Shown: positions 17,856 to 32,551, counted from the stretch's first letter. The stretch: DNA of 64,000 nt from an uncultured Flavobacteriaceae bacterium (GCA_947488435.1 CANKZG010000001.1:734308-798307), one strand, 5' to 3'. Translations and numbers: made by a program. Notes: a model not told the origin generated them from the letters alone.

Positions 17856-18306
17856 ACATCGCTTCTACTTCAACAGGGATATTATCAGGAAGAATCATCC
17901 CCACTGCGCTCCGAACGCCTATACCATTTTCTTCGCCAAAAACAGCAGCCATAAGTTCGCTAAAGCCATTAATAACATAAGGTTGTTTTCCGAAATCAGG
18001 AGTTGAGTTTACCATTCCAAGTACTTTTACAACCCTTTTTATTTTATCAATGTCACCAAAATGAGTTTGAATTGTTGAAAGCATTGTAAGACCTACCTGA
18101 TGTGCAGCTTTCTTTGCTTCGTCTTTATCAATATCATCTCCAGCTCTACCTATCATAAGTGTTCCATCATTTTTTACTGGTCCTTGTCCGGATACGTAAA
18201 GGAATTTTCCAACAACCAAGATAGGTCTATAAACCCCCATTGGAGGTGGAGCAGGGGGAAATTCTAGTCCCATGGACTTAATCTTTTCCGAAGCTAATGT
18301 TTTCAT
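17842..18306 (-). CDS. ridA: RidA/YjgF family deaminase
   Basis: 154 aa, typical RidA length and C-terminal signature. Confidence 0.8.
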   Translation of the reverse strand: MKTLASEKIKSMGLEFPPAPPPMGVYRPILVVGKFLYVSGQGPVKNDGTLMIGRAGDDIDKDEAKKAAHQVGLTMLSTIQTHFGDIDKIKRVVKVLGMVNSTPDFGKQPYVINGFSELMAAVFGEENGIGVRSAVGMILPDNIPVEVEAMFELY

Positions 18307-19422: not shown

Positions 19423-20433
19423 TCAGAAATATAACTGTGCTGCCTTCGAAAATTTTGTTGCCATCCGTTTACGCAAACGTTCAGGCTGCAATACCTCCAT
19501 GGCCTCTCCAAAACCTAAAATCAGACGTTCCAATTCAAAATTCAATTTCACTTTTATATTAATTTCAACACTTCCATCTTCATTTTCTTTTTCAATAATC
19601 TGTGAATGATGTATAGGTTTAGTCACGACATAAGGAGCATTGTATTTGTCGATCCATAATTTAATATTGGAAGCCCGTTCCCCTTGGTTCACGGTAACAC
19701 CCACAACATCCTTGTAAAAGGTATCTGCATCAAATTCATAATTTGAATAAGAAATAGCGAAATCATAGTCAATCGAAATGATTCGGTCAAGGGCAAGATT
19801 AACTATGCCTTTGTTCTTATTTCCCATTCCTATTAGAAACCATCGGTTGTTAAACTCCTTCAATAAGCAGGGATGGAAAGTAATTACATTGGCAGTAGCA
19901 GCTTTAAAAGACTTGTACTCCACCTTTAAAACCACTTTTTTCTGAATGGCTTGATAGAGTTCGTCAAGCCAATGTAATCCTTTTAGATTCTCGTTCTTAT
20001 CTAGATGAATAATAGATGACTGATGCGTCTTCTCAGTATATACTTTATCTTCTAATCGTTGAATAATTCCACCCAATTCTGAAAACAAAGAAAAGTCTTT
20101 AAACTGCTTTAGCATTTCTACAGTTTCAGAAAGTACATTCATGTCGTTTTCAGTTATGGGGATATCCGTAATGGAATAATCCTCATCTTCGTATTTGTAA
20201 TACTTTCTATCATAAGCAACAATTGGAGCGTTGTAACCTAACTTATCACTTCGCATCAACTGAATATCGAGTTGCACCGTCCGTTTGCTCACATTCACTT
20301 CCCTACCTTCGTATTCATATAAGGCATCTGAACAGGCTTCAATTAAATCATCTAAAGTCCATTGACGGTAGTTGTTTTGAAGGCATTTGTCAATAGTTTT
20401 ATATCGGATTAGGGCGTTTTTGTTGAGGGCCAT
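19423..20433 (-). CDS. HTH + WYL-domain transcriptional regulator (recalled by resemblance)
   Basis: 336 aa; N-terminus MALNKNALIRYKTIDKCLQN...WTLDDLIEACSDAL...VSKRTVQLDIQLMRS matches my recollection of the winged-HTH N-terminus of Bacteroidetes WYL-domain proteins, followed by a ligand-binding-like middle region; co-operonic with the HD protein (1-nt overlap). Confidence 0.55.
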   Translation of the reverse strand: MALNKNALIRYKTIDKCLQNNYRQWTLDDLIEACSDALYEYEGREVNVSKRTVQLDIQLMRSDKLGYNAPIVAYDRKYYKYEDEDYSITDIPITENDMNVLSETVEMLKQFKDFSLFSELGGIIQRLEDKVYTEKTHQSSIIHLDKNENLKGLHWLDELYQAIQKKVVLKVEYKSFKAATANVITFHPCLLKEFNNRWFLIGMGNKNKGIVNLALDRIISIDYDFAISYSNYEFDADTFYKDVVGVTVNQGERASNIKLWIDKYNAPYVVTKPIHHSQIIEKENEDGSVEINIKVKLNFELERLILGFGEAMEVLQPERLRKRMATKFSKAAQLYF

Positions 20434-21047
20434 TATAATGTATTTAGTTCATTGTACAAATTTGCTCTTGCCTGTTTTTCAAAAGTGGATTGAAAACCCT
20501 TAGTTTGATAAATTGTGTTCTTGTCTAAAAAGTGATGAAGTACTTTCTTTCGTCCTTTACGATACATAATACCGGGAATTTTAGCATACTCTTTTCTAAT
20601 CTTCAGAGCATAATCTTGGTATACCTCTTCGGACTGTCCTAAAATTGCTAAATCAAAGTCTATTAACAATTTCTCATCATTCGATTTGCCATTATGGTGT
20701 TTCGTACAAAGAATAAGTGCTTCAATTCGTTGAATTCCATCTACATCAAATCCAATATCTTGTAATACCTGATTGGCTTTTATTGCACTTTTCTCCTCGT
20801 TATCCTTTTTCCAAATACTATAGACAAAATCATGATAGTAAATAGCTAAAAGCATCTCTTCAGTATTTTCGATATCATCTTTGAACTTATCGAAATAGCC
20901 ATAGAGTTCGGTAAGGTGATCTAGATTGTGGTATTTTCGAAACTTTTGTCCATAAGCGCCAGCTAGTTCATTCCATAAAGCGGCAACTTCATTTTCCGTT
21001 GGTACATATTTAGAGAAAATCTTGGCGTGTCTTTCTTTTAAGTCCAT
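20433..21047 (-). CDS. HD-domain metal-dependent phosphohydrolase (putative RNA-end-processing enzyme)
   Basis: 204 aa; H...LDH...YYHD motif pattern (YHNLDHLTELY, AIYYHDFVY) consistent with an HD fold. Confidence 0.45.
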   Translation of the reverse strand: MDLKERHAKIFSKYVPTENEVAALWNELAGAYGQKFRKYHNLDHLTELYGYFDKFKDDIENTEEMLLAIYYHDFVYSIWKKDNEEKSAIKANQVLQDIGFDVDGIQRIEALILCTKHHNGKSNDEKLLIDFDLAILGQSEEVYQDYALKIRKEYAKIPGIMYRKGRKKVLHHFLDKNTIYQTKGFQSTFEKQARANLYNELNTL

Positions 21048-21083
21048 AGTGTATTTGACTTAAAATTACAAGAACTCAACTAA

Positions 21084-21104
21084 CTACGCAAAATAATTGC
21101 GTAG
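21084..21104. promoter_or_regulatory. perfect 7-7 palindrome CTACGCA-aaataat-TGCGTAG in the divergent HD-WYL / NTase-rtcB promoter region (copy 1 of 3)
   Basis: Read directly from the sequence; arms are exact reverse complements; see copies at 22930 and 30414. Confidence 0.45.
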
Positions 21105-21136
21105 TACATCATCAAATTTGTATCATAATTTTAGAA

Positions 21137-21874
21137 ATGATGAAAAGTAAACTTAAAAATCTAGCAACCGACAAGAAAGTAGACATACTGTTTGCTTGTG
21201 AATCTGGAAGTAGGGCCTGGGACTTTGCTTCCCCAGATAGTGATTTTGATGTTAGATTCGTATATACACATCCAATAGACTGGTATTTGTCAATCTCGGA
21301 AAAACAAGATACCATCGATATAATGGATGGTGATTTTGATGCAGTCGGTTGGGAACTCAGAAAGAAGCTACGCTTACTTAAAAAGTCGAACGTACCTGCA
21401 TTGGAGCATTTATTTTCACCTATAATTTATATTGAAGAAAGTTCATCCATTAAGGAACTGCGAGCGATAGCGAAAGATTGCTTTTCTCCTGTAGCTTGTA
21501 TGTATCACTATTTAAGTATGAGCAAAAAATATGAAGAAAAACTGACTGGTGAAACTGTAAAACTAAAGAGTTTGTTTTATGCATTGCGAACAGCTTTGGC
21601 GGGCAAGTGGATACTTGAACACAATACGATGCCACCTGTTGTTTTTAGCAAGATGTTATCTCTTATAAAAAGGGATGAGGCTGACGAAATAAGACACTTG
21701 ATGACTATAAAATCGGAGAATAACGAAAGTTATTTACATTCCAGAAATGAGAAAGTCGTAAACCTTATAGCAAGTGTTTTAGTTGTTAATGAAAAGTTTG
21801 CAAAATCGCTTTCGGGTGGGAAACCTGATACTGATAGAATAGATAGTTTTTTATATAACACTTTGACCAAATGA
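21137..21874 (+). CDS. DNA-polymerase-beta-superfamily nucleotidyltransferase, most likely the RtcB-associated PF10127 (RlaP-like) family
   Basis: 245 aa; GSRAWDFASPDSDFDVRF = G[SG]-x9-13-DxD nucleotidyltransferase motif. Confidence 0.6.
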   Translation: MMKSKLKNLATDKKVDILFACESGSRAWDFASPDSDFDVRFVYTHPIDWYLSISEKQDTIDIMDGDFDAVGWELRKKLRLLKKSNVPALEHLFSPIIYIEESSSIKELRAIAKDCFSPVACMYHYLSMSKKYEEKLTGETVKLKSLFYALRTALAGKWILEHNTMPPVVFSKMLSLIKRDEADEIRHLMTIKSENNESYLHSRNEKVVNLIASVLVVNEKFAKSLSGGKPDTDRIDSFLYNTLTK

Positions 21875-22923
21875 AAACAATAGAAGAACTAAAAGCTTCA
21901 GGAAATATCATATTTGAATGTATTAGCGGTAGTAGAGCATACGGACTCGCTACCGCTTCTTCTGATACCGATATTCGTGGAGTTTTTGTACTGCCAAAAG
22001 AAAAGTATTATTCATTGGAATATGTAGGTCAAATAAATAATGTCACGAACGATATTGTTTATTATGAACTCAAAAAGTTCATAGAACTTCTTTCAAAAAA
22101 CAACCCTAACATTCTTGAATTGTTAAGTGTTCCTGAAGACTGCATACTCTCAAAGCATCCGCTATTCGATAAAGTCAAGTCTGAGTACTTTCTTTCAAGA
22201 TTGTGCAAAGACACCTTTGCGAATTACGCTTTTACCCAAATAAAAAAGGCAAGAGGATTGAAGAAAAAAATAGTTAATCCTGTTGAAAAAGAACGAAAAT
22301 ATGTTACTGACTTTTGTTTTGTTCGAAAAGAAAAGGGCGCTATGCCTTTGAATACTTTTTTAGAAAATGAAGGTTTCGAAGTGGACCATTGTGGATTGGC
22401 TAAAATAAGTCACATGAAAGATTGTTACAATCTCTTCTACAACCCTTCTATGAAGTATAGTGGCGTTGCAAGAGAAAATGCGAATGAAGTCTGCCTTAGT
22501 TCTATTCCAAAATCGGAAGTGCCAGCGGCTATTTTATATTTCAATCGAGATGGTTATTCATCCTATTGTAAAAAGTATAAAGAGTATTGGTCTTGGGTAG
22601 AAAAGAGAAATGATGAACGTTACAAGAGTAATATCTCACATAGCAAGAACTACGATGCTAAAAACATGATGCACACTTTTCGTCTTTTACATATGGCCAA
22701 AGAAATAGGGGCTGATAATAAAATTATGGTAAAAAGACCAGACCGAGATTTTCTGCTAGCTGTAAAAAATGCTGAATTCGAATATGAAGAGTTGGTAGAA
22801 AGAGCTGAAAAGTTAAAATCAGAATTGGAGGTTACATATGAAAAAGCTGATTTAATGGAACGCCCAGACTTGGATATAATAAATGAACTATTGGTTGAAA
22901 TAAGAGCTCAATTCTACGAATAA
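21871..22923 (+). CDS. second PF10127-like nucleotidyltransferase (paralog; ATGA overlap with upstream gene)
   Basis: 350 aa; ISGSRAYGLATASSDTDIRGVFVLP motif; extra C-terminal helical domain. Confidence 0.6.
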   Translation: MKTIEELKASGNIIFECISGSRAYGLATASSDTDIRGVFVLPKEKYYSLEYVGQINNVTNDIVYYELKKFIELLSKNNPNILELLSVPEDCILSKHPLFDKVKSEYFLSRLCKDTFANYAFTQIKKARGLKKKIVNPVEKERKYVTDFCFVRKEKGAMPLNTFLENEGFEVDHCGLAKISHMKDCYNLFYNPSMKYSGVARENANEVCLSSIPKSEVPAAILYFNRDGYSSYCKKYKEYWSWVEKRNDERYKSNISHSKNYDAKNMMHTFRLLHMAKEIGADNKIMVKRPDRDFLLAVKNAEFEYEELVERAEKLKSELEVTYEKADLMERPDLDIINELLVEIRAQFYE

Positions 22924-22929
22924 ATTTTA

Positions 22930-22950
22930 CTACGCAAAATAATTGCGCAC
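22930..22950. promoter_or_regulatory. palindrome copy 2 (CTACGCA-aaataat-TGCGCAC, slightly degenerate) between NTase-2 and rtcB
   Basis: 19/21 identical to the copy at 21084. Confidence 0.35.
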
Positions 22951-23040
22951 ATGAGTCGCAAGTTTGTACCGGAATCATAAAGAAGCCGGTTCGCCGACTT
23001 CATGTAGTGCCCCGTCGAACGTTGGAGTCGGTGGGGCTAA

Positions 23041-24908
<1,868 letters not shown>

Positions 24909-25058
24909 AATTATTCTCATATTTGCAACTGGATAAATAAATATAACAAGAGAAAATAGTAAAATATGCCAGATTATTTAAATCACATACCGGACGCTAA
25001 GAAGCTAGGATTGCATCGAATTGATGGGTAGACACTATTGAGAAAACGATACATTACT

Positions 25059-25088
25059 AGAGCGTCCAAGAAATTAGGCGCTTTTTTT
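25059..25088 (+). terminator. rho-independent terminator after the rtcB operon
   Basis: AGAGCGTCC-aagaaatta-GGCGCT followed by TTTTTTTT; homologous to the terminator at 28484. Confidence 0.5.
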
Positions 25089-25264
25089 TATATACATTTT
25101 TTAGAGAATTCTCAAAATTCTAAAAGAATGCTATTTGAAAGCTAAGCATTTGAAAAACAGCAAATTGATGAATTATGCTGCTATCTGTTAAACAACGGAC
25201 CAGGATACTTATGTTTTGATTTTATTATAACTAATTGATAATCAGTAATTTAAATTATATTTTC

Positions 25265-25295
25265 TTGTGTAATCCAAAAATCCGTTTTAGCTTTG
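25265..25295 (+). promoter_or_regulatory. Bacteroidetes sigmaA-type promoter (-33 TTG ... -7 TAgcTTTG), cassette A
   Basis: TTG at 25265-25267, 20-nt spacer, TAGCTTTG at 25288-25295; the whole block is duplicated at 28701-28731. Confidence 0.45.
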
Positions 25296-25299
25296 CATC

Positions 25300-25474
25300 G
25301 CAATACAGCAACAAAATTTATTAACTGAAGTATATATGACTTTTTCAAACACATATCAGAATACACTAAAAGCACCAGGTGCTTTATTAGTGTCGCTTCA
25401 GGACTTCTATAATACATAAAGCTACTATAGTTAATGATAGAAAGTCCGAAGCCCTAAAGTTTCGGACTTTTTTA
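25300..25474 (+). ncRNA. candidate leader / small RNA A (~170 nt) ending in a terminator-like hairpin upstream of rtcB2-prfH
   Basis: Promoter-to-hairpin unit; hairpin AGTCCGAA-gccctaaagt-TTCGGACT + TTTTT at 25443-25474; no ORF; 5' ~80 nt homologous to cassette B. Confidence 0.35.
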
Positions 25475-25576
25475 TGCTCTAATTTTTAGTGACACATCTT
25501 TCCGAAACATTTTATCAAATCAAGTATTGCTCTTCCATTTTTGGAACAGCCGTACTATTCCTTAAAATGAAATCTC

Positions 25577-26968
25577 ATGGGAAAGAAATTAAGCGGAAAG
25601 GACCTAATCAAATTGGGTTTTCCAAAGAACAATAGTATCAATATTACATTAGGTCAAATCAATAGATACCATAAGCGAAAAAATAAAGAGCAGGTATTGA
25701 TGGAAGCTAAAAAAGTATTGTTGCATCCTGAGGACTATCAAGGTGATGGGGTTTGGGGTAAGATAGCAGAAAGCTTGTTAGATCCAGTTGTGGTCAAAAA
25801 ACAAGTGCTGAATTCGGCAAGAGCACCTTTCCAAATCTATGGCGAGAACGAAATAGAGGAGCAAGCAAAATACCAATTGTATGATGCTTTAAAACTTCCG
25901 ATTTCTGTTGCTGGGGCTTTGATGCCCGATGCCCATAGTGGTTATGGCTTGCCTATCGGGGGTGTTTTGGCTACTAAGAATGCGGTGATTCCATATGGAG
26001 TTGGTGTTGATATCGGTTGTCGCATGTGTTTGACTATTTATCCGATTCCGGTTTCTTACCTCAAAGGAAAGAAACATCAATTGGCAAATATGCTCTCGGA
26101 GCATACCAAGTTCGGAATGCGGGAAACCCATAAGATAAAGCATGACCACGAAATCTTTGAGCGCGATGAATTTAAAAATATTCCGCTGATAAAAAGATTA
26201 AAGGATAAAGCGTACAAGCAATTGGGAACCTCAGGTGGTGGAAATCACTTTGTAGAATTCGGAAAGGTCACTATTACAGATGACGAGAACGAATGGGGGT
26301 TGAAATTGGGCGAATATCTAGGTGTGCTTTCCCATAGTGGTTCAAGAGGATTAGGTGCAAACATTGCAAAACATTACACCTATTTGGCAACAAAGCAATG
26401 TCCGTTACCCAAACATGTGCAGCATTTGGCATGGTTGGATTTGAATACCCATGACGGACAAGAATATTGGTTAGCTATGAATCTAGCAGGTGATTATGCA
26501 AAAGCATGTCACGATGATATTCACGCAAGACTAGCGAAACTTTTGGGTACAAAACCAGTAGTTAAAATAGATAACCATCACAATTTTGCTTGGAAACAAG
26601 AGGTAAATGGTGCCGAGTGTATTGTGCATAGAAAGGGAGCAACTCCCGCCGCTAAAGGCGAGTTGGGAATTATTCCTGGGTCAATGACAGCATCGGGTTA
26701 CATCGTAAAAGGTTTGGGCAATACAGAGAGTTTAAACTCTGCTTCCCATGGTGCTGGACGGCTTTTTTCAAGACGAAAGTGTAAAGAAACGTTTACACGA
26801 AGCGAAATTAAAAAGCAACTAGACTCAAATGAGGTAACACTAATTGGTGGAGGAATTGACGAAGCACCCATGGCCTACAAAAACATTGAAAAGGTCATGG
26901 CAAATCAACAAGAATTGGTTGAAGTACTCGGAACCTTTACACCCAAAATAGTACGAATGGATAAATAA
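25577..26968 (+). CDS. rtcB: RtcB-family RNA ligase (paralog 2, RtcB2-like, paired with prfH)
   Basis: 463 aa; DAHSGYGLPIGG, GGGNHFVEFG, SHSGSRGLG, NHHNFAW, SHGAGRLFS. Confidence 0.85.
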   Translation: MGKKLSGKDLIKLGFPKNNSINITLGQINRYHKRKNKEQVLMEAKKVLLHPEDYQGDGVWGKIAESLLDPVVVKKQVLNSARAPFQIYGENEIEEQAKYQLYDALKLPISVAGALMPDAHSGYGLPIGGVLATKNAVIPYGVGVDIGCRMCLTIYPIPVSYLKGKKHQLANMLSEHTKFGMRETHKIKHDHEIFERDEFKNIPLIKRLKDKAYKQLGTSGGGNHFVEFGKVTITDDENEWGLKLGEYLGVLSHSGSRGLGANIAKHYTYLATKQCPLPKHVQHLAWLDLNTHDGQEYWLAMNLAGDYAKACHDDIHARLAKLLGTKPVVKIDNHHNFAWKQEVNGAECIVHRKGATPAAKGELGIIPGSMTASGYIVKGLGNTESLNSASHGAGRLFSRRKCKETFTRSEIKKQLDSNEVTLIGGGIDEAPMAYKNIEKVMANQQELVEVLGTFTPKIVRMDK

Positions 26969-27060
26969 CAGATAGTAGTTAGCGACGGTATTTATAAAGC
27001 ATATTGAAAACCTAAGATTATTGGAATACCAACGCTAGCTACTTCTTTTAAAGAAATAAA

Positions 27061-27753
27061 ATGGAAAAGATAATTCAAATAACAACAGGTAGAGGCCCAG
27101 CGGAATGTAGCTGGGTCGTTGCCAAAGTACTCAAGCGATTTTTGGAAGAGACCAAATCGAGAGGATTTAAACATAGTATCCTCCATCGAGAAACAGGAAG
27201 CCAAAACGGGACAGTACAATCGGTGACTATCCGCTTGACAGGAAAAAATATGGAAGCATTTTTAGCAACTTGGTTGGGTACTATTCAGTGGATAGGCGTT
27301 TCAACATTTCGAAAATACCATAAACGAAAGAATTGGTTTATCGGGGCTTTCGAATTGAAACAAACGCAAACTACGAAAGTGGATGAGCGAGATATTTCGT
27401 TTCAAACCATGCGGAGCACCGGTCCTGGTGGCCAGAATATCAACAAGATTAATTCTGCTGTTCGGGCAATTCATACCCCCACAGGAGTACAAGTAGTTGC
27501 GATGGATAGTCGTTCTCAACATCAAAACAAAAAACTAGCAATAGCTCGGTTAAAAGAAAAAGTAAATGAAGCTAACCTAGAGCAGTTAAAGGGAAGCATG
27601 ACAGATCAATGGGAGAACCATTTGAATCTGCAACGAGGAAATCCGGTCCGAGTTTTTAAGGGTACAGATTTCAAACATCAAAAAGTGGATAAAAGTTATA
27701 AACCAAAACGGCAAAAGCTAAAAAACGATTTCAAACATCAAAAATGGGACTGA
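27061..27753 (+). CDS. prfH: peptide chain release factor H (RF-H)
   Basis: 230 aa class-I release-factor GGQ-domain protein (STGPGGQNINK) lacking a full codon-recognition domain; immediately downstream of an RtcB paralog as in the E. coli rtcB2-prfH pair. Confidence 0.75.
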   Translation: MEKIIQITTGRGPAECSWVVAKVLKRFLEETKSRGFKHSILHRETGSQNGTVQSVTIRLTGKNMEAFLATWLGTIQWIGVSTFRKYHKRKNWFIGAFELKQTQTTKVDERDISFQTMRSTGPGGQNINKINSAVRAIHTPTGVQVVAMDSRSQHQNKKLAIARLKEKVNEANLEQLKGSMTDQWENHLNLQRGNPVRVFKGTDFKHQKVDKSYKPKRQKLKNDFKHQKWD

Positions 27754-28298
27754 CAATAGCCGATACTTATTACTTAAAGGCACGAGCAGCAATGGGAGGT
27801 TTTTGCCCTGATTGGGACGAAGTTTGTGAATCACTGAACTACGCCCTGTCTTACGATGAAAATCATTGTGCCTCCCTTTGTCTTTTAGGTAAAGTTTATG
27901 CAGGAAATTTGAATCAGTATACTGAAGCTTTCGATTGCTTTGACAAAGTAATTGCAATTGACAGTTACTATATGGATGTCTATCCTGCCTACGCAAAATA
28001 TCTTATTTGGGCCGATGAAATTGAAAGAGCAACTAAACTAATTGCTTTTGCTCTTACCATAAAAGGGATATCAAAAGGAAGTTTATTTTGGCTTTCCGCG
28101 TATGCGTCTGAAACCAAGGAAGCTTATAAAGATGCTCTGAAACATCTTAACAAAGCTAAGAAGTATTCCTATAATGACGATTACTTTTCTTTCATTGAAG
28201 ATGAAGAAAATAGAATTAAAAAGAAATTGAAATTGGATAAATCCAAAGTAAAAAAGAAGAAATCTTCATCTAAAAAAAAGAAGAAAAAGAATAAATAG
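27744..28298 (+). CDS. TPR-like protein with C-terminal poly-lysine tail
   Basis: 184 aa; helical repeats; ends KKKLKLDKSKVKKKKSSSKKKKKKNK encoded by A-rich tracts; overlaps prfH stop by 10 nt. Confidence 0.5.
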   Translation: MGLTIADTYYLKARAAMGGFCPDWDEVCESLNYALSYDENHCASLCLLGKVYAGNLNQYTEAFDCFDKVIAIDSYYMDVYPAYAKYLIWADEIERATKLIAFALTIKGISKGSLFWLSAYASETKEAYKDALKHLNKAKKYSYNDDYFSFIEDEENRIKKKLKLDKSKVKKKKSSSKKKKKKNK

Positions 28299-28483
28299 TA
28301 GTAACACAACGTTTAAAAATAACATCTTTGTAAAACAAATGACACCGAGAAAGTTACATATCATCCAACAAATAGAGCTTTGGCTCTGCGATTTTCGCTC
28401 AGAATATAGTGAGCGAAACGGGCGCTATGTGACTTTATCCAACAGTTGATTCTATGTAAATCACTTATTAAACGATAAAATGA

Positions 28484-28514
28484 AAGCGTCCAATTACAAT
28501 TGGGCGCTTTTTTT
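28484..28514 (+). terminator. rho-independent terminator after the prfH operon
   Basis: AAGCGTCCAATT-ac-AATTGGGCGCTT followed by TTTTTTT. Confidence 0.55.
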
Positions 28515-28700
28515 GTGGAATTTTTTAAAGTAAAATGCGAAAAGTAGTAAACGAATAAAATAGCGTAGTTGAAACAGAAAACAATTGGTAGACAGACAGT
28601 TGTAATAAATGTTTAAAGTCCGCAATATGACGGACAGGGATTCTATTGTTCATATTTTAATTTAACTATCTGATTATCAATAAATTAAATTAATTTTTTC

Positions 28701-28731
28701 TTGTATAATTTAAAAATCGTTTTCATCTTTG
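28701..28731 (+). promoter_or_regulatory. Bacteroidetes-type promoter, cassette B (-33 TTG ... CATCTTTG)
   Basis: Same spacing (20 nt) and flanks as cassette A; sits upstream of the tRNA array. Confidence 0.4.
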
Positions 28732-28737
28732 CACCGT

Positions 28738-28948
28738 CATAAATTATAAACCCATTACCAATGGAATCTTTAAAAAGACATATACAATTATTGGAACTAC
28801 ATCTCTGTTCGCCGAAATGGTTTGAACGGTTTTATAGTGATCAACTGTCCATTTGTAAACAAAGGAGAAATACGTGTATCATGTGTTGACGTCATAGACA
28901 CCATTCACATATGTACAGAGCATCTCCGATAAAGAGGTGCTTTTTTTA
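28738..28948 (+). ncRNA. candidate leader / small RNA B (~200 nt) ending in a hairpin + T7 tract 22 nt before the first tRNA
   Basis: Hairpin GCATCTC-cgataaa-GAGGTGC + TTTTTTT at 28920-28948; 5' part homologous to leader A. Confidence 0.35.
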
Positions 28949-28969
28949 TGCGATTATTTTTTGAAAAAA

Positions 28970-29057
28970 GGAAGAGCAAGCCAAAGGGCGGTGGCCACAC
29001 TCTTGAAAAGTGTTCGGAGTAACCAGTCTCGTGTGGGTTCGACTCCCACCTCTTCCG
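28970..29057 (+). tRNA. tRNA-Ser(TGA), class II
   Basis: Hand-folded: acceptor GGAAGAG/CTCTTCC, anticodon arm ACACT-CTTGAAA-AGTGT, long variable arm, T-arm GTGGG-TTCGACT-CCCAC, G73; 88 nt. Confidence 0.8.
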
Positions 29058-29062
29058 CAACT

Positions 29063-29149
29063 GGAGGGTAGGCAAATACTGGTTTGTTGCGCTCGCCTGC
29101 TAAGCAAGTCTACCATAAGGTAGTGAAGGTTCAATTCCTTTGCCCTCCG
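29063..29149 (+). tRNA. tRNA-Ser(GCT), class II; the only array member with an encoded CCA
   Basis: Acceptor GGAGGGT/GCCCTCC (one G-U), loop CTGCTAA, variable-arm hairpin CTACC-ataa-GGTAG, G73 then CCA; one C-A mismatch in anticodon stem. Confidence 0.7.
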
Positions 29150-29156
29150 CCAAATT

Positions 29157-29229
29157 GACAAGGTGGCTGAATAGTTAAGGCAATGGTCTGCAAAATCATT
29201 TTTTATGAGTTCGAATCTCATCCTTGTCT
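29157..29229 (+). tRNA. tRNA-Cys(GCA)
   Basis: 73 nt; acceptor GACAAGG/CCTTGTC, loop CTGCAAA, T-arm ATGAG-TTCGAAT-CTCAT, U73 (Cys identity). Confidence 0.8.
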
Positions 29230-29240
29230 CTAAATATTAT

Positions 29241-29323
29241 GGAAGTATTGAGCAATTGGCTGGCTCGCTTGACTGTAAATCAGGTTCAGAAATGACATGT
29301 AGGTTCGAGTCCTGCTGCTTCCA
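29241..29323 (+). tRNA. tRNA-Tyr(GTA), class II
   Basis: Acceptor GGAAGTA/TGCTTCC, anticodon arm CTTGA-CTGTAAA-TCAGG, long variable arm, A73. Confidence 0.75.
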
Positions 29324-29327
29324 CAAC

Positions 29328-29398
29328 GCGTCTGTGGTGTAATGGTAGCATTTGGGTCTCCAAAACCTATGATTGAGGTTCGAATCCTTAAGGACGCG
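29328..29398 (+). tRNA. tRNA-Trp(CCA)
   Basis: Anticodon arm TGGGT-CTCCAAA-ACCTA as in E. coli tRNA-Trp, T-arm TGAGG-TTCGAAT-CCTTA, G73; one mismatch at the acceptor-stem base. Confidence 0.65.
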
Positions 29399-29401
29399 CA
29401 A

Positions 29402-29474
29402 AGTACCGTAGTTCAAAGGCTAGAGCGCCCGACTGTCTATCGGGAAGGTACGGGTTCGAGTCCCGTCGGTACTG
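29402..29474 (+). tRNA. tRNA-Asp(GTC) with unusual U37
   Basis: Acceptor AGTACCG/CGGTACT, anticodon arm CCCGA-CTGTCTA-TCGGG, T-arm ACGGG-TTCGAGT-CCCGT resembles E. coli tRNA-Asp; G73. Confidence 0.65.
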
Positions 29475-29479
29475 CGAAA

Positions 29480-29552
29480 CTGGGAAGATAACGGTGGTTA
29501 GTTTACCCGCTTTGGAAGCGGGAGGTCGCAAGTTCGAATCTTGCTTCCCAGA
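29480..29552 (+). tRNA. tRNA-Pro(TGG)
   Basis: Acceptor CTGGGAA/TTCCCAG, anticodon arm CCCGC-TTTGGAA-GCGGG, T-arm GCAAG-TTCGAAT-CTTGC, A73; only 5 nt after tRNA-Asp. Confidence 0.8.
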
Positions 29553-29614
29553 CGACTTAGTCAAATCAAGTTTACTTGAATTTGATTAGCAAGGAGTAGT
29601 TGTAAGAAAGACGA

Positions 29615-29636
29615 AGTCAATCTTGCTTCTCAGACT
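29615..29636 (+). pseudogene. 3' remnant of tRNA-Pro (T-loop 3' half + acceptor 3' strand), direct repeat of 29531-29552
   Basis: AGTCAATCTTGCTTCTCAGAC vs GTTCGAATCTTGCTTCCCAGAC (17/20). Confidence 0.5.
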
Positions 29637-29639
29637 TTT

Positions 29640-29712
29640 GCTCTGTTCGTATAATGGTTAAGTACGCCTGACTTTCTATCAGGAAATAGGGGTTCGATTC
29701 CCCTACAGAGTA
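29640..29712 (+). tRNA. tRNA-Glu(TTC) with unusual U37
   Basis: Acceptor GCTCTGT/ACAGAGT (G1-U72), D-stem CGTA/TACG, anticodon arm CCTGA-CTTTCTA-TCAGG, T-arm AGGGG-TTCGATT-CCCCT. Confidence 0.65.
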
Positions 29713-29717
29713 CAAAA

Positions 29718-29790
29718 TGAGGTATAACTCAGTTGGTAGAGTACCGTGCTTTTAACACGGGAGTCTTAGGTTCGAGTCCTAATGCCTCAA
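29718..29790 (+). tRNA. tRNA-Lys(TTT)
   Basis: U1-A72 acceptor TGAGGTA/TGCCTCA, D-arm ACTC-AGTTGGTA-GAGT, anticodon arm CCGTG-CTTTTAA-CACGG, A73. Confidence 0.75.
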
Positions 29791-29795
29791 CAATT

Positions 29796-29868
29796 GCAGG
29801 GATGGCGAAATGGCAAACGCAGCTGGTTTAGAACCAGTACTCTGAGAGTTCGAATCTCTCTCCCTGTA
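29796..29868 (+). tRNA. type-I tRNA with Leu anticodon TAG (Leu-like D-arm, variable arm only 5 nt)
   Basis: Acceptor GCAGGGA/TCCCTGT, D-arm GCG-AAATGGCAAA-CGC (Leu-like), anticodon arm GCTGG-TTTAGAA-CCAGT, variable ACTCT, T-arm GAGAG-TTCGAAT-CTCTC, A73. Confidence 0.5.
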
Positions 29869-29875
29869 CTATGAT

Positions 29876-29949
29876 GCCCCACTAGCCCAACCGGCAGAGG
29901 CAAAGGACTTAAAATCCTTAAAGTCCAAGTTCGAATCTTGGGTGGGGTA
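29876..29949 (+). tRNA. type-I tRNA with Leu anticodon TAA (variable arm 5 nt)
   Basis: Anticodon arm AAGGA-CTTAAAA-TCCTT nearly identical to E. coli tRNA-Leu(UAA) arm, but variable region only AAAGT; T-arm CCAAG-TTCGAAT-CTTGG, A73. Confidence 0.5.
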
Positions 29950-29954
29950 CAAAT

Positions 29955-30079
29955 AAGCTTATGGTGTAATGGATAGCACGCAGGATTTAACTCACGCTCT
30001 TTTTACTTGAAATAAGGAGTTCGTGAATGCAGAAAAGCATTTCTAACCCTGAGGTATGAGTTCAAATCTTGTTAGGCTT
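29955..30079 (+). ncRNA. tRNA-like element (125 nt): canonical acceptor/D-arm/T-arm with a ~60-nt insertion in the anticodon region
   Basis: 5' AAGCTTA-TG-GTG..CAC D-arm (11-mer TGGTGTAATGG shared with tRNA-Trp); 3' ATGAG-TTCAAAT-CTTGT T-arm + TAGGCTT acceptor strand pairing 7/7 (one G-U) with the 5' end; split CAGG/CCTG anticodon stem. Confidence 0.3.
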
Positions 30080-30085
30080 GCAAAT

Positions 30086-30157
30086 AGACCCGTGATGTAA
30101 CGGTTAGCATACAAGGTTTTGATCCTTGTTGTAAAGGTTCAAATCCTTTCGGGTCTT
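30086..30157 (+). tRNA. tRNA-Gln(TTG)
   Basis: Acceptor AGACCCG/CGGGTCT 7/7, D-stem ATGT/GCAT, anticodon arm CAAGG-TTTTGAT-CCTTG, T-arm AAAGG-TTCAAAT-CCTTT. Confidence 0.7.
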
Positions 30158-30162
30158 CAAAT

Positions 30163-30236
30163 GGTGTCTCTAGCTTATTTTGGTAAAGCGTCCCACTGTG
30201 AATGGGAAGAACAGGGTTCGAGTCCCCGAGTACACC
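30163..30236 (+). tRNA. tRNA-His(GTG) with encoded G-1 pairing C73
   Basis: Anticodon arm TCCCA-CTGTGAA-TGGGA, D-stem GCTT/AAGC, extra 5' G opposite C73 (His hallmark); two mismatches near the acceptor-stem base. Confidence 0.6.
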
Positions 30237-30242
30237 CAAAAG

Positions 30243-30315
30243 GGAACAGTAGCAAAGATGATCAATGCGGCGGATTGAAGATCCGACGATACAGGTTCGA
30301 GTCCTGTCTGTTCCA
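30243..30315 (+). tRNA. tRNA-Phe(GAA)
   Basis: Acceptor GGAACAG/CTGTTCC 7/7, anticodon arm GCGGA-TTGAAGA-TCCGA, T-arm ACAGG-TTCGAGT-CCTGT, A73. Confidence 0.7.
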
Positions 30316-30319
30316 CAAC

Positions 30320-30392
30320 AGGAGTATAGTTCAATTGGACAGAACGCTGGGCTACGAACCTAGAAATGCGAGTTCGAGTCTTGCTACTCCTA
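30320..30392 (+). tRNA. tRNA-Arg(ACG)
   Basis: Acceptor AGGAGTA/TACTCCT 7/7, D-stem GTTC/GAAC, anticodon arm CTGGG-CTACGAA-CCTAG, T-arm GCGAG-TTCGAGT-CTTGC, A73. Confidence 0.8.
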
Positions 30393-30413
30393 CTAAAACA
30401 AGAGAAATTTTAG

Positions 30414-30434
30414 CTACGCATAATCATTGCGTAA
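30414..30434. promoter_or_regulatory. palindrome copy 3 (CTACGCA-taatcat-TGCGTAA) inside the tRNA array
   Basis: 6-bp arms TACGCA/TGCGTA with 7-nt A/T spacer, same architecture as copies at 21084 and 22930. Confidence 0.35.
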
Positions 30435-30498
30435 TTATGGTTCAATTTTGCCTTGTAATAAAAGCAGTCCTTATAGGGAAAACGGGGCTGTAATAGTT

Positions 30499-30530
30499 CC
30501 CTGCAGCAAATTTAATGCTGCAGGGTTTTG
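30499..30530 (+). terminator. strong rho-independent terminator closing the first tRNA block
   Basis: 9-bp GC-rich stem CCCTGCAGC-aaatttaat-GCTGCAGGG followed by TTTTG. Confidence 0.7.
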
Positions 30531-30536
30531 ATAAAT

Positions 30537-30740
30537 ACCTCTTTAGCTCAAAGGGAAGAGCTGTGGTAAAGGATATTGATCGTAGCCACGGAGTGATTGG
30601 AAGACGTTGTTAGCGGCGTGCCTGCTAATGAATAGAATTTGCAGAAGCACCGAAATGAACAAGATTCAAAATAGGGAAGCGCATTTATAGCCAATCTGTT
30701 CGTTTCGACGAAAGTGCCAGTTCGAATCTGGCAAGAGGTA
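30537..30740 (+). ncRNA. tRNA-like element (204 nt): acceptor stem 7/7, D-arm and T-arm intact, anticodon arm replaced by ~130 nt of structured sequence
   Basis: 5' ACCTCTT-TA-GCTC-aaagggaa-GAGC; 3' GCCAG-TTCGAAT-CTGGC-AAGAGGT-A; interior has several hairpins incl. a UUCG tetraloop (TTCGT-ttcg-ACGAA) but no anticodon stem-loop. Confidence 0.3.
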
Positions 30741-30750
30741 CAAAGTTCAT

Positions 30751-30780
30751 TGAAAAAAAAATTCTGCCTAGGCAGAATTA
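30751..30780 (-). terminator. rho-independent terminator for minus-strand transcripts
   Basis: Plus strand reads AAAAAAAA-ATTCTGCC-tagg-GGCAGAAT, i.e. hairpin followed by U8 on the minus strand. Confidence 0.5.
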
Positions 30781-30920
30781 ACAATATCAAGCTGGTCTTG
30801 TTGGGTGTTTCTGTATAGCACTATTGTGTGAAGCGTTGCCATAGGGTATAATGTTTTCATGTACAACTTGACTTGATGGTTTCGATTGTTCGCCAAAAAA
30901 CGATCACCACTCTGTGAGTC

Positions 30921-31012
30921 ATGGGTTCGAATCCCATCAGTCCCAAATGGGACTGTAGTTCAGTTAGGTTAGAACAACAGACGGATGCGCAGGTTCGACT
31001 CCTGCCAGCGGC
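30921..31012 (+). pseudogene. tRNA debris: T-arm + 3' acceptor (ATGGG-TTCGAAT-CCCAT-CAGTCCC-A) immediately followed by its matching 5' acceptor + D-arm (GGGACTG-TA-GTTC...GAAC) and a second T-arm lacking an anticodon arm
   Basis: Hand-folded; looks like a permuted or tandem-decayed tRNA pair; no complete cloverleaf. Confidence 0.4.
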
Positions 31013-31023
31013 CACTTTTTTTA

Positions 31024-31067
31024 GGCCCTGTAGCTCAGTTGGCTAGAGCACTACACTCATAATGTAG
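31024..31067 (+). pseudogene. 5' two-thirds of a tRNA-Met/Ile2(CAT): acceptor 5' strand, D-arm, anticodon arm; T-arm and 3' end missing
   Basis: GGCCCTG-TA-GCTC-agttggcta-GAGC-A-CTACA-CTCATAA-TGTAG, then no TTCGA T-loop and no CAGGGCC partner. Confidence 0.45.
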
Positions 31068-31450
31068 GTTTCTAAAGCTGACCATCTTTTAAAACTGGTC
31101 TCCAAGCCCTGTTAGGCTTAAAATGACAAAAACCGTAGGTATAAGTCAGTTGGTTTTTCTTCGGATAAATCAACAGTCTTGAAACTACTTTGAAATAGTG
31201 AATTTTTGATGCGAAAGGCAATTTCTTTTTGAATATCCTTCCCTCGGAAAAACCAATAAAAAGTATTGGCAACGTCGACCGAAGCATACCAAAAAAACAA
31301 ATCGTAACGAGCTTCGAAAACCAATATTTCCGTAACGGATAGATGAGTTATAGTTGCGGTTTTTTAAAAGAGAAAAACAAATTAATACTAAATAAGAAAT
31401 CGTTTAACCCGTTCGTCCGTCACTAGACTGGCGGACACAAATTTTAAGTA

Positions 31451-32551
31451 ATGAAAAGAGTAAGAATCAATGCAGGAAGAGTAGGTTTGGTCTTCAAAAG
31501 AGGCGATTACCAAAGAGTAATTACCCAAGGTACACACTGGGTAAGCTTCAGAAATATGGTTAAGGTATATGACCTTACCAAGGCCTTTGTTGCCCCTATA
31601 GCATTAGAAATCTTGCTACAGGACCAGGGCTTGGAAGCTATGTTGCATATCATCGAAGTTAAGGATGCTGAATTGGCTCTAGTTTCTGAAAACGGAAACT
31701 TGAAACAAGTCCTTACTGCTGGTAAGTACGCTTTCTGGAAAGGTCTGATAAACTTCGAGTTCGTTATGGCGGACTTGAGTAAGATCTATATCACTGAAGC
31801 TATCAGCAAAGCAATGTTGAGCCATCCTCAGTTGCGAGCGTATGTTCGTACTTTGGAAGTTGCGGCTTACGAAAAGGCTGTCCTCTTGGTTGATGATGTT
31901 TATGTCAAAACGCTGGAAAGTGGTACCTACCATTTCTGGAAGAACGACATCTCTATCAAAATTGCCAGAGCGGACATGCGTCAATTGCAATTGGAGATTT
32001 CTGGTCAAGAATTGTTGACCAAAGACAAGGCTGCTATTCGTATCAATTTCTATACACAGTATAAAGTTATAGATATCGAGAAGGCTTTGCTAGGCAACAA
32101 AGACTATGAAAAGCAGTTGTATATCGCAATGCAATTAGTATTACGGACCTATATTGGCACCTATACCTTGGATGAGCTTCTAGAACGAAAAGAAAGCATC
32201 GCTGAAGCTGTGTTTGGGGATATCAAAACTGCCGCTACCCAATTGGGTGTTGCAATTTTGAGTTGTGGTATTCGTGATGTTATCCTGACCGGTGAAATGA
32301 AAGATATTATGAACCAGGTTTTGGTTGCTCAAAAGAGAGCTCAAGCGAATATCATTACCCGACGTGAAGAAACTGCGTCTACCAGAAGCTTGCTGAACAC
32401 CGCGAAGTTGATGGAAGACAACGAAATGCTCTACAAACTGAAGGAAATGGAATACGTTGAAAAGATCGCCGAAAAAATCGGTGAGATTACCGTCTCTGGC
32501 AATGGAGGTATGGTAAAACAATTGAAAGAGATTTTCTCAGTCAATAAGTAA
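31451..32551 (+). CDS. SPFH/band-7 (slipin-like) domain protein with extra N-terminal domain
   Basis: 366 aa; C-terminal half has SPFH-like pattern (…VLVAQKRAQANIITRREETAS…). Confidence 0.55.
   Translation: MKRVRINAGRVGLVFKRGDYQRVITQGTHWVSFRNMVKVYDLTKAFVAPIALEILLQDQGLEAMLHIIEVKDAELALVSENGNLKQVLTAGKYAFWKGLINFEFVMADLSKIYITEAISKAMLSHPQLRAYVRTLEVAAYEKAVLLVDDVYVKTLESGTYHFWKNDISIKIARADMRQLQLEISGQELLTKDKAAIRINFYTQYKVIDIEKALLGNKDYEKQLYIAMQLVLRTYIGTYTLDELLERKESIAEAVFGDIKTAATQLGVAILSCGIRDVILTGEMKDIMNQVLVAQKRAQANIITRREETASTRSLLNTAKLMEDNEMLYKLKEMEYVEKIAEKIGEITVSGNGGMVKQLKEIFSVNK

Follow-up and report, generated by a model that had tools for sequence, protein, structure and literature searches.

The sequence analysed here, referred to as the window, is a stretch of 64,000 nucleotides (nt) of DNA from an uncultured Flavobacteriaceae bacterium; all coordinates are counted from its start. 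It contains an island of about 13 kb (19423-32551) that encodes two RtcB RNA ligases, a PrfH-family factor, a TPR protein, two RlaP-like nucleotidyltransferases, an HD-type hydrolase, a WYL-type regulator, a dense tRNA array, several tRNA-like RNAs and, as the last gene, an SPFH/Band-7 protein. The original prediction, which was made from the window alone, described a translation repair and rescue island at 19423-31070. All the parts it named were recovered at their positions, and its start is retained. Its end is not: homology to the closest genomes runs from about 19451 to about 32591 in the locus comparison, and the island was therefore extended through the Band-7 gene (31451-32551); the TPR gene (27744-28298) is a further addition, to the PrfH operon. 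On balance, we think it likely that the island is a modular chromosomal locus answering damage to the translation apparatus, with a universal core, optional add-on modules and two regulatory circuits.

The window was compared with 80 Bacteroidota loci carrying a close RtcB2 homologue (70-97% identity), from a scan of one genome per species; they are labelled L001 to L080. They belong to Maribacter, Aquimarina, Zobellia, Cellulophaga, Winogradskyella, Bizionia, Lacinutrix, Tenacibaculum, Polaribacter and Flavobacterium, and also to Sphingobacterium and Saprospiraceae. Co-occurrence was counted in the 57 of these loci that have full flanks; the counts are raw, and the loci share kinship. Maribacter supplies the nearest homologues, at 90% identity for the HD protein (M. 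algarum) and 97% for RtcB2 (Maribacter isolates).

The universal core is composed of RtcB2, PrfH and the TPR protein, and is found across Flavobacteriaceae, Sphingobacterium and Saprospiraceae. RtcB2, the PrfH-associated ligase (25577-26968, plus strand), matches PF01139 with 282 bits. PrfH (27061-27753, plus strand) matches TIGR03072 with 229.4 bits, against a cutoff of 166.65, and its translation holds the GGQ peptidyl-hydrolase motif (GPGGQNINK). The two genes are adjacent and co-oriented, with PrfH downstream of RtcB2, in all 80 loci. The third gene of the operon (27744-28298, plus strand) follows PrfH in about 76 of the 80; it encodes a protein with a poly-lysine tail that matches TPR models weakly and has homologues named TPR proteins. 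The TIGR03072 match covers residues 5-204 of the 230 amino acids (aa) of PrfH, and a lysine/arginine-rich extension of 26 aa lies beyond the profile. Looking up the exact PrfH sequence gave no match. Both the length and the tail agree with the PrfH-CT type of Flavobacteriia (225-250 aa, basic K/R-rich C-terminal tail; PMC12829566), a subfamily that includes the PrfH of Capnocytophaga gingivalis and rescues damaged as well as intact stalled ribosomes (PMC12829566). That paper does not mention neighbour genes, leaders or tRNA arrays. By homology, the window PrfH may share the dual rescue activity.

In E. coli, RtcB2 and PrfH constitute a ribosome rescue and repair module (PMC9304027, PMC9223846 and PMC13166195). 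The likeness lies in the constant pairing of an RtcB ligase with a PrfH-family factor that carries GGQ and scores above the family cutoff. Unlike the E. coli module, the one described here has the order RtcB2-PrfH followed by the TPR/poly-lysine gene, a PrfH with a basic C-terminal tail, an RtcB2 below the TIGR03073 cutoff, a conserved leader with upstream open reading frame (ORF) and terminator, and a linked tRNA array and second repair cassette.

Two intergenic regions of the island share a promoter cassette of about 110 nt, which consists of a small hairpin, a TGATWATCA palindrome and a Bacteroidetes-type -33/-7 promoter. It is present in exactly two copies in 64 kb (0.03 expected): copy R (25155-25300, plus strand) upstream of RtcB2, and copy T (28590-28740, plus strand) upstream of the tRNA array. 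Among the related loci, from which 92 copies were aligned, the cassette is found once before RtcB2, and again 330-500 nt before the first tRNA in nearly every locus with an array. In Aquimarina loci (L013, L014, L017, L020, L022, L026 and others) the cassette and the RtcB2 leader are separated by variable hairpin insertions, TGTCACACTGAGC...GTCGAAGTGT, which may be small mobile repeats.

Each copy of the cassette is followed by a leader with the layout of an attenuator. The R-leader (25323-25473, plus strand) contains an upstream ORF of 27 codons (25336-25419), segment 1 (CTGAAG), segment 2 (CTTCAGGACTTC) and a terminator formed by segments 3 and 4 (AAGTCCGAAGCC...TTTCGGACTTTTTT). Of the 81 sequences examined, 68 have it, with Sphingobacterium and Saprospiraceae represented. 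Segment 1 is generally (C)CGAAG, with an AUG 4-8 nt downstream, and segment 2 (CTTCGGGACTTC) lies within the upstream ORF; in 66 of 66 distinct R-leaders this ORF has 24-28 codons and its stop falls between segments 2 and 3. Segments 1 and 2 covary (CTGAAG/CTTCAG in Maribacter, CCAAAG/CTTTGG elsewhere), as does the terminator. The predicted anti-terminator helix between segments 2 and 3 is 74% paired, compared with 70.5 ± 1.1% after shuffling (2 of 500 shuffles reach 74%), and its register beats shifted registers. The full leader folds as 1:2 + 3:4; when cut before the 3' arm of the terminator it folds as 2:3 in four genera (z -2.1 to -4.9; -4.7 in the window).

The T-leader (28761-28950, plus strand) is unrelated to the R-leader in sequence, and alike in geometry. 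Its upstream ORF (28761-28889) has 42 codons, and its terminator occupies 28917-28950. An upstream ORF is present in all 30 T-leaders (39-44 codons, 60 in one locus), the terminator begins 22-30 nt past the stop codon in 30 of 30 loci, and in 29 of 30 truncated folds the partner of the terminator's 5' arm lies within the upstream ORF.

Leader-peptide attenuators include the trp type and the inhibitor-responsive ones upstream of vmlR, lmo0919 and hflXr. Their defining parts, a short upstream ORF, mutually exclusive helices and a U-tract, were recovered computationally, with the terminator soon after the stop codon as in these examples. As with hflXr, the controlled genes handle stalled ribosomes. 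The leaders of the island differ from the known ones in belonging to Bacteroidota, in standing before rtcB2-prfH and a tRNA array, in the position of segment 1 upstream of the start codon and in having no obvious run of regulatory codons. The logic of the RtcB2 leader would be that of the trp-type scheme, with a likeness to the inhibitor-responsive attenuators as well, and translation of the upstream ORFs is plausible. Literature searches found no description of a leader peptide before rtcB or prfH, or of shared attenuators.

The leaders might instead be protein- or ligand-binding RNAs, or small-RNA genes, in which case the open frame would be a by-product of constraint on the RNA. In favour of this, the inner hairpin and the 1:2 pairing covary as the amino acids change (GAACC/GGTTC to GCACC/GGTGC, CCGAAG/CTTCGG to CTGAAG/CTTCAG), and since initiation in Bacteroidota is not guided by Shine-Dalgarno sequences, there is no ribosome-binding-site signal to inspect. 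We nevertheless consider it unlikely, in view of the constant position of the 24-28-codon frame (start 4-8 nt past segment 1, stop between segments 2 and 3, 66 of 66), when by a rough estimate about 13% of random AT-rich frames of this length stay open, and in view of the unrelated T-leader, which repeats the geometry in 29-30 of 30 loci. A search of Rfam at a permissive threshold also gave no family for either leader.

In many related loci an extra gene lies between the leader terminator and RtcB2, overlapping the start of RtcB2 (L001, 5142-5975; L016, 9327-10016; L044, 8592-9956). It codes for a very basic protein of 229-277 aa (454 aa in L044) with the C-terminal end ISWERN. The window has no such gene; the segment 25474-25577 seems to retain a short remnant of its 3' end.

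The region upstream of the core contains a second set of genes. The WYL+WCX transcription regulator (19423-20433, minus strand) is the second gene of an HD-WYL operon; it matches the Pfam families WYL (37.7 bits) and WCX (57.4 bits), both above cutoff, and no Pfam helix-turn-helix family matches its N-terminal 70 residues at E = 0.01. Homologues are located upstream of RtcB1 in 22 of the 57 full-flank loci. The gene overlaps by 1 base that of an HD-superfamily phosphohydrolase of the COG4339 type (20433-21047, minus strand), which was identified by its conserved residues, AlphaFold2 fold and homologue names. Despite the lack of a Pfam HD match, the HD hydrolase of the original prediction is upheld: H40, H72-D73 and D130/D132 are invariant among 34 homologues, these are named HD phosphohydrolases in the source databases, and the best PDB folds for the AlphaFold2 model (pLDDT 97) are HD hydrolases and phosphodiesterases, with weak Foldseek E-values of 0.0065 or worse. 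The protein thus appears to possess both the H...HD...D metal-binding motif and the HD fold.

Divergent from this operon, on the plus strand, are the overlapping genes of RlaP1 (21137-21874; PF10127, 236 bits, profile positions 6-248 of 249) and RlaP2 (21871-22923; PF10127, 100 bits). RlaP2 is a partial member of the family: the match is restricted to residues 10-127 and to profile positions 17-140, and an RlaP-like N-terminal domain is joined to a C-terminal half without family. RlaP extends the 3' ends of damaged RNA by one or two nucleotides, and heavily damaged tRNA depends on it to regain function after repair (PMC12776372). Next comes RtcB1 (23053-24441, plus strand), a divergent RtcB ligase (PF01139, 127 bits) whose metal- and GMP-binding catalytic motifs are intact in an alignment with the RtcB of P. 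horikoshii. The end of RtcB1 is overlapped by an ORF of about 157-170 aa (24396-24908, plus strand) that matches no family and has weak homologues (27-30% identity) in four loci.

A palindrome, TACGCAA-N5-TTGCG(TA), present as TACGCAWAATMATTGCG, occurs three times in the window, where 0.04 copies are expected, and all three are within the island (no strand is assigned to them). Operator O1 (CTACGCAAAATAATTGCGTAG, 21082-21104) lies between the divergent HD-WYL and RlaP operons and overlaps the -33 TTG of both, O2 (22928-22947) is upstream of RtcB1, and O3 (30412-30433) is placed right after the tRNA array, before the tRNA-like RNAs and Band-7. With one mismatch allowed, the pattern has 110 matches in the 80 loci and 11 in shuffled sequence. 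A pattern with other spacing, TACGCA-N5-TGCGTA, was discarded as not enriched (33 matches, 42 shuffled). In the relatives, 37-41 nt separate the operator from the HD or WYL start codon downstream of it, so that autoregulation of WYL would be possible. Ahead of RtcB1 the distance is mostly 53-125 nt, and ahead of RlaP1 it is 55 nt in several loci; a further position is directly 3' of the last tRNA, 0.7-2 kb upstream of Band-7. In the Winogradskyella, Bizionia and Lacinutrix group an additional operator separates the TPR gene from the array. In the window, the 5' untranslated region of RtcB1 (22948-23052, downstream of O2) has two GC-rich hairpins, one of which is terminator-like on the opposite strand.

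Bacteroidetes promoters typically have a -33/-7 layout, and each window operator fits it, overlapping a TTG located 17-19 nt upstream of an nAnnTTTG element. The position of the operator over the -33 element suggests that the WYL regulator is a repressor; activation is the alternative reading. Literature searches returned nothing connecting WYL regulators with RtcB, and neither an RtcB cassette under WYL control nor the WYL operator came up in them.

The operator is not found immediately upstream of RtcB2, nor, in the window, upstream of the tRNA array. The shared regulatory DNA proposed in the original prediction is real, with three copies of the palindrome and two of the cassette in the window and conservation of both across genera. 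Its single co-regulated response has to be revised: as RtcB2-PrfH and the array share the promoter-plus-leader cassette and not the WYL palindrome, there would be two circuits rather than one.

The tRNA array (28970-30393, plus strand) is composed of 15 canonical tRNAs and an interrupted tRNA-Arg(tct) (29953-30081), that is, 16 genes in 1.4 kb. This agrees with the earlier count of about 16 packed genes plus tRNA-like elements, the latter being the tRNA-like RNAs at 30536-31115. The packing is that of the long tRNA arrays (L-arrays) of PMC8421152; in the related loci the median spacer is 5 nt (313 spacers). There are 2-19 tRNA genes per array across the relatives, and no array in 37 of the 57 full-flank loci. 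The order is largely conserved (Ser-Ser-Cys-Tyr-Trp-Asp-Pro-Glu-Lys-Leu-Leu-Arg-Gln-His-Phe-Arg), with Asn, Ile, Met, Val, Gly or Ala added in other lineages.

Several members are unusual, and the description of the array as aberrant is fair. CCA ends are not encoded (only 31 of 347 tRNAs have CCA near the 3' end). The array tRNA-Leu(UAA) and tRNA-Leu(UAG), at 29796-29950 in the window, are 74-76 nt long in 40 of 43 copies, the long variable arm being absent, whereas the non-array Leu tRNAs of the same loci measure 83-85 nt; the short-arm forms retain A73 and a class-II-like D-arm. The acceptor stem of the window tRNA-His is mismatched, and tRNA-Arg(tct) has a 54-nt insertion in its anticodon loop. 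Thirteen of the window tRNAs have Rfam scores of 41-66 bits, and most members of the array still look like working tRNAs.

The insertion of about 54 nt in tRNA-Arg (TTTAGCTCAC...AATAAGGAGTTCGTGAATGC...GCA) is conserved at the same anticodon-loop position in five loci (window, 29953-30081; L011, 16084-16202; L049, 16065-16186; L040, 6380-6510; L045, 17274-17398), where TCT, TCG or TCC follows at the anticodon position. Two small hairpins and an AAGGAG-N7-ATG motif lie within the insertion, which does not reach the length of a group I intron. The same tRNA is found without it in relatives.

These anomalies lend some weight to a non-decoding role for the array and the tRNA-like RNAs, as decoys, sponges, sensors or substrates for anticodon nucleases and other RNA toxins, with the repair enzymes acting on them or being regulated through them. 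Besides the short Leu tRNAs and the mispaired tRNA-His, there are anticodon-loop insertions in two tRNAs, and the circularly permuted modules described below offer no free 3' end for aminoacylation; the array tRNAs of Anabaena have been proposed to act as sponges (PMC8421152), and YrlA to inhibit nucleases (PMC7790460). Most array members, however, have full cloverleaves, correct anticodon loops and plausible identity elements such as A73 in Leu, 13 of them reach the Rfam scores given above, and 23 array tRNAs of Anabaena are functional, some being charged and present in polysomes (PMC8421152). Decoy and decoding roles are compatible, and we regard the decoy role as rather doubtful.

The array has some similarity to phage tRNAs. 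A phage search returned matches of one or two tRNAs only, at 75-85% identity for single tRNAs and the pair: Serratia and Erwinia phages match the Glu-Lys pair at about 77% identity, and the window Leu(taa) shares 85% identity with the tRNA-Leu of Serratia phage Kamaji. Long tRNA arrays have also been reported to spread horizontally (PMC8421152). The island might accordingly be a remnant or the cargo of a phage or mobile element, carrying tRNAs for the codon usage of the element or for evasion of tRNA-targeting defences. This is very improbable, and a mobile element was rejected because neither integrase nor transposase genes, nor phage genes, were found in the island flanks. Furthermore, the GC content of the protein-coding parts is close to that of the flanks, 2.9 million viral contigs yielded only an RtcB of 40% identity, and plasmids yielded one single-tRNA match and nothing longer. 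A partial tRNA-Met at 31024 was considered as the remnant of an attachment or integration site and dismissed, since the RNA to which it belongs is conserved and keeps a fixed distance from Band-7.

This conserved RNA and a second one lie between the array and Band-7. The first, E1 (30536-30748, plus strand), is a tRNA-like RNA of 213 nt detected by the intron mode of ARAGORN, with tRNA-like acceptor, D and T arms around a 117-nt anticodon-loop insertion (fold z = -2.9). It has homologues in 17 loci, and Rfam at a permissive threshold gave no family for it. E1 is found directly upstream of RlaP1 or RtcB1, and not by Band-7, in L065 (6857-7061), L024 (4066-4270) and L051 (1277-1408).

The conserved RNA E2-E4 (30780-31115, plus strand) contains tandem circularly permuted tRNA-like modules, unit A at 30907-30985 and unit B, with a CAU anticodon arm, at about 30986-31070. 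The order within a module is closing stem, T-arm, acceptor stem closed by a loop, and D-arm. Compensatory changes affect 14 of the 19 predicted base pairs. Its Rfam matches are to YrlA (RF02553), below the gathering threshold (38.4 and 28.9 bits against 69). The RNA is at a fixed 330-560 nt upstream of Band-7 in 15-23 loci. The Band-7 gene (31451-32551, plus strand; PF01145, 88 bits) is present in 19 of the 57 full-flank loci, and in 18 of these 19 the permuted tRNA-like RNA stands alongside. No TROVE domain (Ro60/Rsr) was detected in the island ORFs of at least 100 aa.

The segment E0 (30432-30535) has no homologues among the related loci. It includes a strong terminator-like hairpin just downstream of O3 (30499-30525, CCCTGCAGC...GCTGCAGGG followed by TTTT). 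The hairpin segment, about 30463-30533, looks like an insertion specific to the window, as it is absent from the closest relatives L001, L002 and L004.

Apart from the core, all modules (WYL, RtcB1, the RlaP pair, HD, the tRNA array, the YrlA-like RNAs and Band-7) are optional across the 80 loci. Their presence is linked, as the original prediction would require of relatives: among the full-flank loci, Band-7 is found in 16 of the 20 that have an array and 3 of the 37 that do not, and WYL in 17 of 20 and 5 of 37, respectively. Six other loci, from other genera, have the full set. When present, the modules retain their order and orientation, with WYL/HD/RlaP1-2/RtcB1 upstream of the core and the array, then usually Band-7, downstream.

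Gain and loss of modules can be seen among close relatives. The RlaP1-RlaP2 module is missing from the 97%-related Maribacter locus L002, where the junction (7000-7020) falls exactly at two operator-containing direct repeats, 21064-21101 and 22910-22947 in the window. This position suggests that modules are gained and lost by recombination between operator copies.

Such events are also compatible with a fortuitous hot spot, in which a PrfH operon, a WYL-controlled RtcB cassette and a horizontally acquired array came together with no functional or regulatory coupling. The modules come and go, in one case with a junction at the operator repeats; the flanking genes differ among close relatives; many loci have the core only; and the RtcB2 promoter has no WYL operator. 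Mere coincidence is nonetheless quite unlikely, given that the 110-nt cassette and the upstream-ORF/terminator logic stand before both RtcB2 and the array in several genera, that the add-ons co-occur far above expectation with order and orientation kept, that some genera have a WYL operator between the TPR gene and the array, and that the flanks lack integrase and transposase genes.

The favoured reading, a damage-responsive locus with core, add-ons and two circuits, has several observations to contend with. The core alone is present in 24 of the 57 full-flank loci, and the add-ons are therefore dispensable and may act independently. The co-occurrence counts treat related loci as independent and ignore their kinship. 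RtcB2 does not attain the NCBIfam cutoff for the PrfH-associated RtcB (TIGR03073; 154.6 of 271.8 bits). With respect to the leaders, covariation of the R-leader anti-terminator is modest, 2:3 is the minimum-energy fold in only 43 of 66 truncated R-leaders (by a crude base-pair count), an inner hairpin of the R-leader upstream ORF covaries while the amino acids change, which denotes constraint at the RNA level, and the anti-terminator fold of the window T-leader is no better than shuffled (z = -0.66). Finally, the co-regulation is deduced from shared DNA motifs only. All of these weigh against the favoured reading.

The nearest functional analogue, by comparison of gene content and motifs, would be the translational-stress regulon of Anabaena. 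In strain PCC 7120 a long trn array that is otherwise silent responds to translational stress and has promoter repeats in common with rtcB (PMC8421152); TrcR represses the array, rtcB and the slipin gene alr0740, among others (PMC10272220), and impaired translation induces both the array and rtcB (PMC8421152, PMC10272220). Both systems combine a packed array of extra-type tRNAs, RtcB and an SPFH/slipin protein, apparently connected through common promoter motifs. The Anabaena genes are dispersed, with the array on a plasmid, and answer to a ribbon-helix-helix repressor that binds direct repeats; here the genes are contiguous, control is apparently by WYL with a palindrome and by upstream-ORF attenuators, and PrfH, RlaP and HD are additional. 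The window locus thus seems to hold the same cast, physically joined and with different control devices.

A location of RtcB near Band-7 and a tRNA-like RNA (b7a-tRNA) was described by Burroughs and Aravind (2016), as cited in bioRxiv 10.1101/312249, and the same authors, as cited in PMC12776372, noted PF10127 nucleotidyltransferases next to RNA ligases. As far as these secondary accounts go, the island shares with the b7a-tRNA system a Band-7 gene with an adjacent tRNA-like RNA near RtcB, as well as RlaP next to an RNA ligase, and the E2-E4 RNA fits their 'band-7-associated tRNA'. It differs from the system so summarized in its chain of permuted modules and 213-nt insertion-bearing RNA, and in placing the RNA behind a WYL operator, directly after a full tRNA array. 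The rsr-yrlBA-rtcBA operon of Salmonella (PMC7790460; bioRxiv 10.1101/312249) likewise joins a ligase to a permuted tRNA mimic (T-arm, closed acceptor stem, D-arm) and has a dedicated regulator, RtcR, which senses tRNA fragments (PMC7790460); the WYL-type regulator may be its counterpart. Unlike that operon, the island has no Ro60/Rsr or RtcA, Band-7 occupies the place of Rsr, the regulator is of WYL type instead of the CARF/sigma-54 activator RtcR, and the YrlA score, at 38 bits, is below the Rfam gathering threshold of 69.

The view that the combination is not a described system was consequently too strong. RtcB2-PrfH (PMC9304027), PrfH-CT (PMC12829566) and RlaP (PMC12776372) are published, and RtcB with Band-7 and tRNA-like RNA (through bioRxiv 10.1101/312249) and the Anabaena regulon (PMC8421152, PMC10272220) are known. 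There is clear precedent for each pairwise link in E. coli RtcB2-PrfH, in Band-7/b7a-tRNA as reported at second hand, and in the Anabaena TrcR regulon. Novelty lies mainly in the upstream-ORF attenuators that the two units share, the WYL operator, the Leu tRNAs with a short arm, the tRNAs with insertions and the tandem permuted tRNA mimics. A PADLOC scan matched generic WYL models only, and the island thus corresponds to no catalogued anti-phage system.

The gene identities, the architecture, the conservation and the RNA covariation reported above are direct observations. From the sequences we infer all regulation and all substrates, as follows. The locus is probably a stress-inducible set for the translation apparatus. 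By homology with E. coli and Capnocytophaga, the core operon would release peptides from ribosomes that are stalled or contain cleaved 16S rRNA, and would re-ligate the rRNA. The leader circuit would place the core operon and a reserve tRNA array behind the same cassette, each with its upstream ORF and intrinsic terminator. A fast ribosome reaching the stop codon of the upstream ORF would mask segment 2, the terminator would form and expression would be off; with no ribosome, 1:2 + 3:4 would form and expression would again be off; a ribosome stalled early would cover segment 1, allowing 2:3 pairing and read-through. Slow or blocked elongation, due to cleaved tRNAs, damaged ribosomes or inhibitors, would in this way switch on rescue, repair and spare tRNAs together.

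In the WYL circuit, the regulator would bind TACGCAA-N5-TTGCG over the -33 element of HD-WYL, RlaP1-2, RtcB1 and the tRNA-like RNA/Band-7 unit, and fragments of damaged nucleic acid might release it, much as RtcR senses tRNA fragments. Broken tRNAs would be healed and sealed by RtcB1 together with the RlaP end-repair nucleotidyltransferases and the HD phosphoesterase, while the permuted tRNA-like RNAs and Band-7 could serve as cofactor, scaffold or decoy. We put forward, tentatively, that the whole is a translation-damage regulon of Bacteroidota, with a stall-sensing attenuator for RtcB2-PrfH-CT-TPR and the atypical tRNAs, and a WYL sensor of broken RNA for the rest. A further extension, and a long shot, is that the non-group-I anticodon-loop insertions of two tRNAs are cut and re-joined by RtcB; this would amount to protein-dependent tRNA splicing in bacteria.

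Literature searches found no account of rtcB2-prfH induction or of a signal of ribosome damage; the conserved attenuator before rtcB2-prfH, repeated before the array, is a concrete candidate sensor, responding to ribosome stalling. Extra tRNA arrays, so far tied to translational stress mainly in one cyanobacterium, here adjoin ribosome rescue, and the WYL operator would mean a second type of regulator for RNA repair besides RtcR. The short-arm Leu tRNAs, the anticodon-loop insertions and the permuted modules could provide substrates for roles of tRNA mimics and Band-7 in RNA repair. The locus is compact, and its carriers include cultured marine flavobacteria (Maribacter, Aquimarina, Zobellia, Winogradskyella).

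The genes flanking the island code for a P-type ATPase, a Crp-family regulator, a dipeptidase, a D-serine dehydratase-like enzyme, RidA, a LytTR-type two-component system and a VWA protein. These are ordinary chromosomal functions, and they vary between close relatives. The RidA/YjgF (L-PSP) gene (17842-18306) is just beyond the conserved border of the island; an L-PSP gene also belongs to the Anabaena TrcR regulon, a parallel that is probably coincidence. On the other side of the island, the segment 42662-53134 is a single ORF of 3490 aa.

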